A DNA stretch of 19,039 nt, from the NCBI GenBank assembly GCA_019057385.1, contig JAHQJS010000004.1, forward strand, positions 662,508-681,546, given 5' to 3'. Positions 922 through 11,891 of this stretch are shown here, piece by piece. The notes beneath the pieces were generated by a model. It worked only from the letters and a program-made list of their open reading frames with translations. It ran no database searches and was not told the origin of the DNA. Position numbers and translations under genes: made by a program. Source of the DNA: Candidatus Borrarchaeum weybense (GTDB taxonomy: Archaea; Asgardarchaeota; Sifarchaeia; Borrarchaeales; Borrarchaeaceae). Numbering within the stretch: position 1 is the first letter of the stretch; each line of letters opens with the position of its first letter.

Positions 922-1548
922 ATGAATGAATCCGAGAATCAAATTGACATTCAAAAAGAAGAAGAAGGAGAAGAAGAAGAAGAAGAAGTTATAACAGAAG
1001 AGGATCTTGAAGCTGAATTACTTGAAGATAGAATAATTGTTTGGAATCCAAAAGTTGGTTCTTGGTTGTACAAGCATGGATATTATGGAAAGCCGGTTGG
1101 AATACGAAAGCCGAAGCATTTCAATTTTACACGACCTCTTGAGTTGTCCTTGCTCGAATCTACTTATCTTTTGTCAATAAATAAATTAAGAATCAAGAGG
1201 GCAATTTCCAACAAACCAATATCATATGAAGAGTTAAAAAGAATTGGTGAACTGCATTACGATCGATTTACTGAGAAATTTCTAGTTTATACTGATCTCA
1301 GGAAGAAAGGTTATGTTGTGCGACCCGGGCTTAAATTCGGTGCAGATTTTGCAATTTACGAACATGGCCCAGGCATTGACCATTCTCCACTTATTGTCCA
1401 TGTTTTGTCAAGAGGTGTTGAACTTTCTCCCATTGAACTTGTTCGAGCAGGTCGTCTTGCCACAACAGTTAGGAAAAAATTTACCATTGCAACAGTCCCG
1501 CCCGACGGTACGCCTAGATACTTTATGTTTTCATGGTTCAAGCCTTGA
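922..1548 (+). CDS. endA: tRNA-splicing (intron) endonuclease, short alpha-type subunit with an acidic N-terminal tail
   Basis: 208-aa ORF with GAGG 8 nt upstream of the ATG and a TGA stop. The C-terminal catalytic domain motifs are present: GYVVRPGLKFGADFAIYEHGPG..HSPLIVHV....RKKFTIATV (Tyr/His/Lys triad context). Confidence 0.85.
   Translation: MNESENQIDIQKEEEGEEEEEEVITEEDLEAELLEDRIIVWNPKVGSWLYKHGYYGKPVGIRKPKHFNFTRPLELSLLESTYLLSINKLRIKRAISNKPISYEELKRIGELHYDRFTEKFLVYTDLRKKGYVVRPGLKFGADFAIYEHGPGIDHSPLIVHVLSRGVELSPIELVRAGRLATTVRKKFTIATVPPDGTPRYFMFSWFKP
958..987 (+). repeat. (GAA)3-GGA-(GAA)6 trinucleotide run encoding EEEGEEEEEE inside endA
   Basis: Read directly: gaagaagaaggagaagaagaagaagaagaa, in frame with the endA ORF. 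Confidence 0.9.
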
Positions 1549-8744: not shown

Positions 8745-8979
8745 AAGATCACTTTACGTTATTGACTAGTATGAGAATTCTTAATAGTATGGTTTTCTTT
8801 ACATTAATTAACATTGTCCATTCTCCGTTGGTTTTGAAGAAAACAATTCCTTATTCACTTTTATGGCAAAGTTGGATGGATATTTTTAAACTGAAGGTGA
8901 GAATAAGCTAAGATGCAATCAATTAACCAATTGATACTCACTGCTAAAACCACGACATAACACATTTTTGGTGAACTTA

Positions 8980-9849
8980 ATGATTATGGTATTGAAGGGG
9001 CACACTGAGACTGTTTACGACATTGCTATCAAAAATGATGGTCTTATTGCATCAGCGTCTGGTGACAAGACGGTTAGACTCTGGGATTTAAAATCAGGTA
9101 AACAATTAAAGGTACTTAAAGGCGCACATTCAAAACCAGTGTATGGAGTGGCGTTTCACCCCTTTGATGATAATCTACTTGCAACGTGTTCGATGGATAA
9201 CGAGATCGCATTATGGGATATAGCTACAGAAACAAAATTAAAAACATTGAAGGGGCATACGAAATCGATTCGATCGATTAGTTTTTCTCTTGATGGAAAT
9301 GTATTGATATCAGGATCAAATGATAAAACTATAGGATTATGGGATATATATTCTGGCAATCTTCTAAGAACACTAAAAGGGCATCTCGATCAAGTGTGGA
9401 GTGTTGCGATTGGCTATGATATTACCCTTGCCTCCGCTTCTAAAGATAAAACAGCACGTTTGTGGAATCTAGAAACAGGAGAACTTCTGCAGGTTTTTTC
9501 ACATGCCAATTACGTTTCAGATGTAGCGTTCTCGCCACAAATTGACCTTTTAGCATCCGCATGTTTCGATAATAACATCTATTTCTGGCAAAGTGGCTCA
9601 AAATCTCCTGTCAGGCTTATAAAAGCCCATGAACAACCTGTGTTAGGCATAGCTTTTAGCCATAATGGTAAATTTGTTGCATCGAGTTCTGCAGATAATT
9701 CCATAGGTCTATGGGATGTTCGTACTGGTGAATCTATTTTACGATTAACTGGGCATTCCGAGCCAGTTAGAAAGATTTTATTCAATTTAGATGATTCATT
9801 TTTGATTTCTTGTTCAGAAGACAAAACAATTGGTATCTTTGAAATTTAG
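8980..9849 (+). CDS. seven-bladed WD40 beta-propeller protein (propeller only)
   Basis: Seven consecutive GH...WD-type repeats, for example GHTETVYDIAIKNDGLIASASGDKTVRLWDL. The start is ambiguous among TTG 8968, GTG 8971, ATG 8980 and ATG 8986. ATG 8980 has GGTGA 6 nt upstream. Confidence 0.85.
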   Translation: MIMVLKGHTETVYDIAIKNDGLIASASGDKTVRLWDLKSGKQLKVLKGAHSKPVYGVAFHPFDDNLLATCSMDNEIALWDIATETKLKTLKGHTKSIRSISFSLDGNVLISGSNDKTIGLWDIYSGNLLRTLKGHLDQVWSVAIGYDITLASASKDKTARLWNLETGELLQVFSHANYVSDVAFSPQIDLLASACFDNNIYFWQSGSKSPVRLIKAHEQPVLGIAFSHNGKFVASSSADNSIGLWDVRTGESILRLTGHSEPVRKILFNLDDSFLISCSEDKTIGIFEI

Positions 9850-10157: not shown

Positions 10158-10667
10158 TAGTTACCACCTCTTCAATAGTTAACATAGACTTTGTAGATTG
10201 TTATATCGAGTTACCGTAATTTACGATATCCTTTTTTTTGGCTATTTGGGCAAAAAATCGATTCAATAGGAGATTTTTTCTTTTATTCCATAGGAAAATG
10301 GGTTTAATTAAGGGTTCATTTTAAAAAATGACCCCCGTCTGGAGGAAAATTCGCCTCTTGACGAAAACCCCTTCTAATTCCAACATTCAATTTTTTGACA
10401 TTTCTTGTTTACTACTTTCATTTATCACCTCTTTATTGAATGTTCAATATTTTTCACAAATATTGTTCATTTGTCTTATTAATTACCTCTAGATCGTTCA
10501 TTTAATAGATCAAATTGAATACCAACATTAAATCGTTCATTTATAAATCTTTCGCTATAGAAGATGATCGAATTATATCAAAAAAGATATTTTTTTACAT
10601 TTCTATTTCAAAAAGAGTTGTATATTTCACTTACGTGTTACAAATAGGCTAAAAAGTTCTAGTAGGC

Positions 10668-10741
10668 GATTTGGTGAACTTTGGCTAAGTTATCAAGAAC
10701 AAGAAATCATCTTTTTTTTCTTTCTTATTCCCTACCAAATC
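10668..10741 (-). promoter_or_regulatory. candidate SECIS-type 3'-UTR RNA element, copy 1
   Basis: Minus-strand RNA folds as follows:
- outer stem GAUUUGGU/ACCAAAUC (8 bp)
- 12-bp helix GGGAAUAAGAAA/UUUCUUGUUCUU, closing a 14-nt A-rich loop GAAAAAAAAGAUGA
- small hairpin AACUU-AGCCA-AAGUU
The block is ~93% identical to the block after the paralogous gene. It starts inside the stop codon and is followed by a T5 tract (plus-strand aaaaa 10651-10655). Confidence 0.55.
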
Positions 10742-11216
10742 ACTTATTTAACTTTTCAAGCACTTCGAATAATGCTTTATTCTTCGGAATGTCGCTCATA
10801 GAATCACTGTAATAAGCATATTGAATGATTCCCTCTTTGTCGACTATAAGTAGCGCCGGCATGCGTCCTAATTTTCGAATTTTGAATTCCTGATGCAGTT
10901 TTTTGGCAACTTCCTTATTGTTATCGTAATATATCGGAAATTTTTCTTTCGCGTACTTTTGTTCCATCTTAATAGCATTTTCAAGCGTGTCTACCAAAAT
11001 TGGATAAATAATCGTGTCTAATTGCTCAAATTGCTCTTTATCTTTAGCAAAACTGCGAACTTGTGCTCTGCAATATGGTCAGTTGATGCTTCTAAGTAAA
11101 GCAACGATAACATTATTCTTTTCGATGAAGTCTTTGATGTTTACGTTTTCTTCCCTTGAATTAGGCAGAGAAAATTCTTCAATTTCCTTCCCTACCATTT
11201 CAAATTTATCCTTCAT
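10740..11216 (-). CDS. thioredoxin-fold Prx-like (AhpC/TSA-redoxin, PRX-like2-type) selenoprotein with a U-P-Y-C redox motif (158 aa, Sec at codon 46)
   Basis: The ATG at 11216 opens a frame running to the TGA at 10742-10740, with a single in-frame TGA at 11081-11079. Hand translation: ...NNVIVALLRSIN-U-PYC-RAQVRSFAKDKEQF...MPALLIVDKEGIIQYAYY.... The ORF track shows only the last 85 aa (10740..10997). Confidence 0.75.
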
Positions 11217-11333
11217 TCGTCTCTCTCTCAAGTTCTCCGTCCTTTGAATTTACTTTGATTCTGTCATTACAGTGTTTTTAATCTTTATTGATGCGGTATA
11301 CGGCCCTTTTGACTTAAAAATAAGAATTCTGGC

Positions 11334-11406
11334 GATTTGGTCAACTTTGGCTAAGTTACGAGAACAAGAAATCATCCTTCTTTTCTTTCTTATTCCCTAC
11401 CAAATC
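11334..11406 (-). promoter_or_regulatory. candidate SECIS-type 3'-UTR RNA element, copy 2
   Basis: Minus-strand RNA reads GAUUUGGU-A-GGGAAUAAGAAA-[GAAAAGAAGGAUGA]-UUUCUUGUUCUC-G-UAACUU-AGCCA-AAGUUG-ACCAAAUC. The architecture matches copy 1. It begins 5 nt after the TAG stop and is followed by a T5 tract (plus-strand aaaaa 11316-11320). Confidence 0.55.
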
Positions 11407-11411
11407 AGTTA

Positions 11412-11891
11412 CTACTGTAGATTTCTAATTGCTTCTAACAATTCCTCAATTTTAGGATTGTCCTTTCCAGAATCACCATAGTAAGCATATTGTATGATTC
11501 CTTCTTTATCTACTATGAGGACGGCTGGCATTCGTCTATATTTGTCATCTACTAATTTAACTTCCTGGCCGAGTATTGTTAGTACTTCTTTCGATTCATC
11601 ATAGTACACAGGAAACTTACCTTTTGCATATTTTTGCTCCATTTCAATGGCATTTTTGAGTACATCCTCCGTAATTGCAATGATGATGGTATTTGACTGA
11701 TCAATCTCATCAAAATGATTAGCTAAGCTCTGGATGTGCTTTCTTCAATGTCCTCAGGCCAGTCCTTTTTTCAATGATATGACTATGTTTTTTCGTCCAA
11801 GAACTTCTTTAATATTTACCGTTTCGCCTCTCGAATTAGGCAGGGAAAACTCCTTGATGTGTTTTCCTATCATATTAAATTTATCTTTCAT
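11412..11891 (-). CDS. thioredoxin-fold Prx-like selenoprotein with a U-G-H-U (double Sec) redox motif (159 aa, Sec at codons 46 and 49)
   Basis: The ATG at 11891 opens a frame running to the TAG at 11414-11412, with in-frame TGAs at 11756-11754 and 11747-11745. Hand translation: ...KNIVISLKKGLA-U-GH-U-RKHIQSLANHFDEIDQ...MPAVLIVDKEGIIQYAYY.... The ORF track shows only the last 76 aa (11412..11642). Confidence 0.75.

Follow-up and report, generated by a model that had tools for sequence, protein, structure and literature searches.

Two adjacent genes on the minus strand of a 19,039-nucleotide stretch of DNA from Candidatus Borrarchaeum weybense, referred to below as the window, are very probably decoded with selenocysteine (Sec) at in-frame UGA codons. 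The two, named here gene A and gene B, are tandem paralogues of the peroxiredoxin-like (PrxL) thiol:disulfide oxidoreductase family, and their host is an Asgard archaeon of the Sifarchaeia/Borrarchaeales type. An earlier inspection of the window had proposed them as Prx-like selenoprotein genes. That proposal is now supported by the fold of the products, the placement of the UGA codons in the redox box, conservation, selection, and a structured element in the 3′ untranslated region (3′-UTR) of each gene, which we regard as a predicted selenocysteine insertion sequence (SECIS). Of the refuting conditions named with the proposal, those that were checked all turned out in favor of selenoproteins.

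Reading frames of the two genes

Translation of gene B meets one internal stop only, the TGA at codon 46 (context ...LRSIN-U-PY-C-RAQ...). In gene A the only internal stops are the TGAs at codons 46 and 49 (...KKGLA-U-GH-U-RKH...). The original prediction had placed a 158-codon frame from position 11216 with a lone TGA at codon 46, and a 159-codon frame from 11891 with TGAs at codons 46 and 49, and both sets of coordinates hold exactly on the minus strand. At codon 49, as had been noted before, gene B has TGC, which supplies its single Cys, and gene A has TGA and no Cys anywhere. The two proteins share 55% amino-acid identity and are colinear, with an alignment free of gaps through the redox box, as had been claimed through codon 49.

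The mechanical list of open reading frames (ORFs) holds for both genes only an 85-aa piece (10740..10997), a 76-aa piece (11412..11642) and antisense shadows, in agreement with the earlier account of that list. Identical DNA is found in the Logan contig SRR14802572, where the public gene calls are the same 76-aa and 85-aa pieces. Standard annotation does lose the catalytic half of both proteins, as foreseen, and shrinks the genes to catalytically meaningless stumps. The gene next to the pair is also present in NCBI GCA_019058475.1. A search of the window for other genes split by TGA returned antisense shadows and trivial extensions only.

Protein family and placement of the redox box

With U replaced by C, both proteins pass the curated Pfam cutoffs of AhpC-TSA (PF00578, 26 bits) and Redoxin (PF08534, 26.6 bits), the families anticipated for them. 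The E-values are 1.4e-16 and 1.7e-14 for gene A and 9.7e-21 and 1.7e-15 for gene B, respectively; the scores of the two proteins are 74.4 and 61.0 bits for PF00578 and 57.5 and 54.3 bits for PF08534. A profile of the family matches the archaeal Bcp/PrxQ structures 2ywn and 2cx3 over the full length (E = 5e-12 and 3.6e-11). This profile alignment, made to solved structures, fixes the positions of the redox box: codon 46 takes the place of the Thr in T-x-x-C, and codon 49 that of the peroxidatic Cys. In the alignment of the family itself, the column of codon 46 holds TGA (W in code-4 miscalls), Cys or Asp and nothing else, and that of codon 49 holds an invariant Cys in the aligned full-length homologues. 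The earlier assignment of the TGAs to a CxxC redox motif agrees with both alignments.

The motif typical of Prx/BCP proteins, P-x-x-x-T/S-x-x-C, is not found in genes A and B, where the position of the Thr is taken by the predicted Sec (TGA). What is found are two traits of PrxL, namely a C/U-x-x-C/U box with Sec first (U-P-Y-C in gene B, U-G-H-U in gene A) and, in both genes, no Cys beyond the redox box. From such a box, a peroxidase activity of the products cannot be assumed.

Three types of relatives were obtained by database search. The first are entries of ~157 aa with W at position 46. The second are C-terminal fragments of ~90–113 aa, many labelled Lokiarchaeota or Promethearchaeota, which are truncated Sec genes. 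The third type is a small number of authentic forms with Cys (CPFC, CPVC) or Asp (DPFC), the true Cys homologues being P0017 and P0067. The public "full-length" proteins with Trp at the Sec position are P0001–P0013, P0024 and P0027, and some Trp-bearing entries overrun the real UGA stop into the SECIS (P0001 ...LNKWFGRE; …LPHWFGKRKIEKYMTF…). It appears that these entries arose when genes on short contigs were called under genetic code 4 or 25.

That many homologues are deposited at full length with W at position 46 is the point in favor of a genome-wide reassignment of UGA, say to Trp or Gly on the pattern of codes 4 and 25, by which the positions in question would not be Sec at all. However, 4 of the 17 other long ORFs in the window end in TGA, and so does gene B itself. 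One of the four is the EndA-like ORF at 922..1548, a tRNA-intron endonuclease by Pfam (PF01974 6e-28, PF02778). The overrun of the true stop marks the W entries as miscalls, a Trp at the nucleophile position of a CxxC box would be chemically senseless, and Cys homologues exist. Reassignment, whose probability is practically nil, is refuted by the stop-codon usage of the window. The original prediction, which had pointed to endA as proof that TGA is a genuine stop elsewhere and had argued for context-dependent recoding, is supported on both counts.

Conservation and selection

Homologues were sampled by a scan with one genome per species, which yielded 80 loci and 86 genes. Nearly all derive from Asgard metagenome-assembled genomes, and the cultured Promethearchaeum syntrophicum and Lokiarchaeum ossiferum, with their UPYC/UPFC orthologues, are among the sources. 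Codon 46 is TGA in at least 74 of the 86 genes, from 80 independent loci and several Asgard classes, with frames otherwise intact; so frequent a TGA at one codon goes beyond chance. By redox box, 59 genes are UxxC, 13 UxxA/S/T, 2 UxxU and 2 DxxC, and 10 were unparsed by the pattern.

The nearest of the loci, with 96% identity, belongs to Ca. Borrarchaeum yapensis, where the tandem pair of UGHU and UPYC genes recurs. Its L001:4001-4477 is 96% identical to gene B. The orthologue of gene A, L001:3326-3805, shares 91% amino-acid identity with an identical UGHU box, and the second TGA is kept. The ratio of non-synonymous to synonymous rates (dN/dS) between the two is 0.27 overall and 0.19 for codons 50–159, which lie after both TGAs; the counts in this part (12.5 synonymous, 10.5 non-synonymous) are small, and the direction is clear. 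Judged by this ratio, the 110 codons past the second TGA of gene A are under purifying selection.

These results bear on the proposal that genes A and B are decaying pseudogenes whose TGAs are inactivating nonsense mutations. Both genes are truncated by standard gene callers, and decay does occur in the family, as one clearly decayed partial PrxL copy in Lokiarchaeum ossiferum (L043:6645-6722) illustrates. In the window pair, however, the stops are TGA only and lie at the two redox positions only; the same codon is TGA in most of the 86 genes, in frames that are otherwise open; the part downstream of the gene A stops has the dN/dS given above; and a covarying RNA element, described below, is maintained after each gene. 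Decay, to which we give hardly any weight, is effectively refuted by the TGA conservation and the dN/dS. Scattered lesions in the orthologues had been named beforehand as a sign of decay; instead, the orthologues have unbroken frames and keep the TGA in place.

Several forms of the redox box depart from UxxC. In 13 of the 86 genes the Sec codon is kept and the second redox Cys is lost (U-P-Y-A/S/T), and the 3′ element is present in all of them. They are located in L035 (3266-3368 region), L063, L065, L067, L068, L070, L071, L074, L075 and L077-L080, and appear to be single-Sec forms. At least one sequence of the U-P-Y-A type (…SKSXPYAKAH…) is part of the published dataset. Asp-type paralogues (D-L-F-C) occur at L029:885-1358 and L021:4643-5119. 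In L021 the Asp-type form directly follows a Sec-type gene; mixed tandem pairs therefore exist.

A structured RNA element after each gene

A 3′ element follows each gene, SECIS A after gene A and SECIS B after gene B (Table 1), both of which had escaped the original prediction. In SECIS A, helix P1 is formed by GAUUUGG and CCAAAUC, P2 has 12 bp with the apex GA-AAAGAAGG-AUGA, and P3 is AACU-UAGCCAA-AGUU. Across the family, P2 is a conserved 9-bp core with an A-rich loop, and P3 is a hairpin of 4–5 bp with a near-invariant UAGCCA(C/A/U) loop. The ~80 nt after the two stops are ~95% identical, compared with 55% identity of the proteins, which suggests either very strong constraint or gene conversion from one 3′-UTR to the other.

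The minimum free energy folds of both copies are branched (z = -2.8 for SECIS A, -3.2 for SECIS B), and most of the homologous elements, folded individually, form a three-way junction. When 56 elements are aligned with MAFFT on sequence alone, 87.2% of the cells are paired in register, against at most 59% with the partner slid. Compensatory changes are seen in 19 of 23 pairs, and none of 500 shuffles reaches the observed values. A model-based alignment of 83 elements gives 91.6% paired cells and compensatory changes in 21 of the 23 pairs. RNAalifold on the raw 103-nt downstream MAFFT alignment, with its ragged flanks and 1-nt register slips, returned no structure.

A covariance model, R1, was built from the trimmed 3′ elements. 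It scores SECIS A at 74.6 bits (E = 2.5e-14) and SECIS B at 73.1 bits (E = 5.2e-14), which are its exactly two matches in the window, the next best having E = 0.48. On 598 kb of loci, R1 gives 83 matches, all at PrxL 3′ ends (82 intact genes and one decayed copy). The element is present after every Sec-type homologue, and R1 finds none after the two Asp-type paralogues (L029; second gene of L021). The decayed partial copy (…RLGQIPDMIIVTKQGTIQYAYYSDSMHDIPKNADLLELFASLEKI) lies in Lokiarchaeum ossiferum CP104013.1, ~2 kb downstream of an intact PrxL gene, and is still followed by a SECIS-like element at L043:6645-6722 (R1 29.7 bits). It looks like the remnant of a tandem duplication resembling the pair in the window.

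Against Rfam 15 at E <= 1, the window gave no SECIS family, the only match being a chance mir-365, and ARAGORN detected no tRNA in the window, hence no tRNA-Sec. Rfam is without a model for the PrxL 3′ element, and R1 could help to annotate the subfamily. Most related loci have T-rich runs behind the 3′ element, and the run after each window copy may mark the end of a transcript. The designation of the element as a SECIS is based on its position, specificity and covariation, and not on a match to the published consensus.

Table 1. Positions of the tandem PrxL genes, their predicted Sec codons and the 3′ features in the window.
Feature	Position	Strand	Description
Gene A, Prx-like (PrxL) selenoprotein gene (predicted)	11412..11891	minus	159 codons; redox box U-G-H-U; stop TAG
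Gene A codon 46, UGA read as Sec (predicted)	11754..11756	minus	attacking (N-terminal) position in the redox box
Gene A codon 49, UGA read as second Sec (predicted)	11745..11747	minus	peroxidatic or resolving position; otherwise invariant Cys
SECIS A (predicted)	11334..11406	minus	73-nt three-way junction; starts 6 nt past the gene A UAG stop
U5 run	11316..11320	minus	13 nt after SECIS A; possible archaeal oligo-U termination signal; read from the sequence
Gene B, Prx-like (PrxL) selenoprotein gene (predicted)	10740..11216	minus	158 sense codons; redox box U-P-Y-C; stop TGA at 10742-10740
Gene B codon 46, UGA read as Sec (predicted)	11079..11081	minus	same codon TGA in at least 74/86 homologous genes
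SECIS B (predicted)	10668..10741	minus	74-nt three-way junction; first two bases are the GA of the gene B UGA stop
U5 run	10651..10655	minus	12 nt after SECIS B; possible termination signal; read from the sequence

The core of the element

In the description by Mariotti et al. 2016 (PMC4989117), the lokiSECIS has AUGA on one side and GA on the other side of a 9-bp stem, which is capped by an 11-nt loop with an A-rich start and an AG end. A looser GA_[G/A]A quartet model for Asgard SECIS was given by Huang et al. 2024 (PMC11227280). The defining kink-turn quartet beside the 9-bp helix, AUGA directly 5′ and GA (or AA) directly 3′, is found in none of the 83 PrxL elements. Where the quartet would stand, 71 and 62 of the 83 have Watson-Crick or G-U pairs. 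The loops are 11–12 nt on the 9-bp core at Lokiarchaeia-type loci and 14 nt (GAAAAGAAGGAUGA / GAAAAAAAAGAUGA) on the 12-bp helix in the window, where the A-rich start is present. The window loops end in ...AUGA followed by a helix U, without the "ultraconserved" G in the final position of the lokiSECIS loop, and Lokiarchaeia-type PrxL loops end in ...GAG.

A fit of AUGA-9-11-9-GA to the two copies was tried and rejected. After gene A, the spacing between AUGA and GA is exactly 29 nt, yet pairing is limited to 5 of the 9 positions. After gene B, CA stands where GA is needed. Covariation favours P2 and P3. A canonical lokiSECIS scan of the first 80 loci and the window gave one weak chance match only, and a search for DFFRGxWU, the other PrxL subfamily, found none. 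As a positive control, the same lokiSECIS scan detected a perfect AUGA-9-11-9-GA after metagenome Sec-FrhD genes (L081, L083-L086), for instance AUGA-GUUUUGUAU-AAAAAUUAUAG-GUACAAAAG-GA in L083. The negative result with PrxL is thus not a failure of the method.

The canonical FrhD/VhuD elements of these same loci fold into a lower stem, a main hairpin and a 3′ mini-hairpin, whose loops (UAGCGU, AGCA, GCGA, UGCAAU) parallel P3 of the PrxL element. Since the canonical elements fold alike, the PrxL element shares the lokiSECIS architecture and differs in the core. The consulted texts of the Asgard SECIS papers make no mention of this mini-hairpin, nor, figures and SECIS tables aside, of the three-way junction, for which no novelty is claimed.

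Within P2, NGA...[AG]UGA(N) stands at the apex in 31 of the 83 elements, among them both window copies, the Borrarchaeum pair, and loci of Jord-, Frey- and Atabeyarchaeia. An [AG]UGA at the 3′ end of the loop is present in 46. The apex GA...AUGA could form tandem sheared G.A pairs. It is conceivable, though rather unlikely in our judgment, that the SECIS of this PrxL subfamily is a distinct, undescribed Asgard variant with the quartet at the helix apex in about one-third of its members. The order of parts would then be helix strand, GA, loop, AUGA, helix strand, A-rich stretch and mini-stem. Our hypothesis is that this strand order represents a circularly permuted type II eukaryote-like SECIS that a new basal helix closes. 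Were this true, the putative factor that reads the Asgard SECIS would recognize a three-dimensional arrangement and tolerate permuted connectivity. The quartet-less or apex-quartet architecture, if it holds up, would also be a natural variant that bears on SECIS recognition without SBP2 in Asgard archaea.

Proposed decoding of the UGA codons

We propose that the in-frame UGA or UGAs of each gene would be decoded by Sec-tRNA(Sec), steered by the gene's own 3′-UTR element ~340–350 nt downstream of the UGA. On the thioredoxin/AhpC fold, the product of gene B would carry a U-x-x-C box that forms a selenenylsulfide, and that of gene A a U-x-x-U box that forms a diselenide. Nucleophilic attack would be made by the N-terminal Sec. 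The terminal UGA of gene B lies inside the base helix (P1) of its SECIS, which a ribosome at this position would have to unwind; this is probably the reason that this UGA is read as a stop.

Alternatively, the UGAs could be passed by a near-cognate tRNA (Cys, Trp or Arg) or by inefficient readthrough, with no Sec inserted, and the 3′ element could serve mRNA stability or termination. The inserted residue is not identifiable from sequence alone, and the element is without the canonical AUGA/GA quartet. Nevertheless, the element follows every Sec-type gene and none of the Asp-type paralogues. Its 9-bp helix, A-rich loop, mini-hairpin and lower stem are common with the bona fide Sec-FrhD lokiSECIS, and the lineage, according to material in PMC9723677 and PMC11227280, encodes Sec machinery and other selenoproteins. 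We consider readthrough without Sec very improbable.

A second alternative accepts gene B as a functional selenoprotein gene and has gene A end at its second UGA or be otherwise non-functional. The published dataset entry for gene A ends at "LAXGH", UxxU occurs in only 2 of the 86 subfamily genes, and UGAs 6 nt apart may decode inefficiently. Against this, the 110 codons past the second UGA are open and recognizable by Pfam, with a dN/dS of 0.19 against an orthologue that keeps UGHU, and gene A is followed by its own intact predicted SECIS. Moreover, UxxU is accepted in Lokiarchaeota PrxL.1 and eukaryotic SelL (PMC4989117), and a 2026 review lists "UxxC, UxxU". The truncation of gene A is, in our view, quite improbable.

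Some points do weigh against Sec decoding of the pair. One defining feature of the lokiSECIS, the AUGA/GA, is lacking as described above. The substitutions behind the dN/dS are few, 23 in the tested part of gene A and 7 in gene B codons 47-158. The Sec machinery of the host lineage is taken from the literature. Sec incorporation is not known from experiment for any PrxL protein in any archaeon, and PMC4989117 calls the family "never experimentally characterized". With these points included, decoding of genes A and B by Sec is still, to our minds, very likely.

The published record

A Prx selenoprotein, tRNA-Sec, SelB and biosynthesis genes were reported in Sifarchaeia by Sun et al. 2021 (PMC9723677). 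According to Huang et al. 2024 (PMC11227280), 43% of the Asgard archaea that use Sec have Prx-like selenoproteins. A 2024 paper reports such proteins in Atabey- and Freyarchaeia, and the 2026 review lists the family as "UxxC, UxxU, 1-2 Sec". In the supplement of PMC11227280, the entry Sifarchaeia_GCA_019057385_U_2 is letter for letter gene B. The entry Sifarchaeia_GCA_019057385_U (MKDKFNMIGKHIKEFSLPNSRGETVNIKEVLGRKNIVISLKKGLAXGH) is gene A residues 1-48, cut at the second UGA. The same supplement lists for GCA_019057385 Sec-containing SelD, FrhA, FrhD (two), HdrA (two) and an AhpF-N homologue.

The PrxL family, its UxxU form and these very genes are already published, and the novelty seen in them by the original prediction was overrated. 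As a discovery the pair adds little to an established Asgard family in which both genes are catalogued. Two increments are left. First, even the curated record cuts the two-Sec gene short: the published gene A entry ends at residue 48, whereas the gene is read here as a 159-residue UGHU protein. The UxxU entries examined in the PMC11227280 file belong to another PrxL subfamily (...FFRGAWXHYXK...), and in the "MKDKF" subfamily, to which gene A belongs, UxxU is confined to the pair from the Sifarchaeia/Borrarchaeales lineage (2 of 86). With gene A, this subfamily would gain its first full-length U-x-x-U (diselenide) member. Second, the three-way-junction model of the subfamily SECIS, which fails the published AUGA/GA criterion, is well supported.

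Other features of the window

At 1851-2312 on the plus strand lies a 153-aa ORF that has a long antisense shadow ORF and is rich in Pro/Gly in its C-terminal half. On the same strand, 8968-9849 encodes a seven-bladed WD40 protein with high scores against many eukaryotic beta-propeller families. Both are compatible with an Asgard origin.

Comparison with known systems

The archaeal Bcp/PrxQ proteins (2ywn/4g2e of Sulfolobus tokodaii, 2cx3 of Aeropyrum pernix) have their fold in common with the products of genes A and B over the full length, at low sequence identity. They differ in the active site: a true Prx has T-x-x-C, whereas genes A and B would have U-x-x-C/U, a thioredoxin-style dithiol/diselenol box.

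The euryarchaeal SECIS of the Methanococcus type, with its GAA_A bulge and three G-C pairs, has the 3′-UTR location in common with SECIS A and SECIS B. In contrast to it, these have no GAA_A bulge between two stems, no G+C-rich upper stem and no Rfam match. The lokiSECIS, or "eSECIS-like type I", lies in the 3′-UTR at or overlapping the stop, as do SECIS A and SECIS B, and the overlap of SECIS B with its stop codon is found in published lokiSECIS as well. The overall fold is also common to both. The PrxL element has a conserved 9-bp helix core and an 11–14-nt loop with an A-rich start, which in the window are 12 bp and 14 nt, against 9 bp and 11 nt in the lokiSECIS.

Eukaryotic SelL, as described in PMC4989117, is similar to gene A in having U-x-x-U on a Prx-like/thioredoxin fold, with the UGAs two codons apart and one SECIS in the 3′-UTR. 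The likeness is by description, and SelL differs in its eukaryotic origin, its canonical eukaryotic SECIS and its dependence on SBP2 for decoding. Among the closest known systems are the PrxL.1 and PrxL.2 proteins described in Lokiarchaeota by Mariotti et al. 2016 (PMC4989117) and the Asgard "Prx-like protein". PrxL.2 has one Sec at the first redox position (UxxC), PrxL.1 has two in UxxU, for which a diselenide was proposed, and PrxL is without other Cys residues. Like genes A and B, these proteins have the AhpC/Redoxin fold with a CxxC-type box replacing TxxC, Sec at the first (UxxC) or both (UxxU) positions of the box, and a 3′-UTR SECIS near or over the stop.

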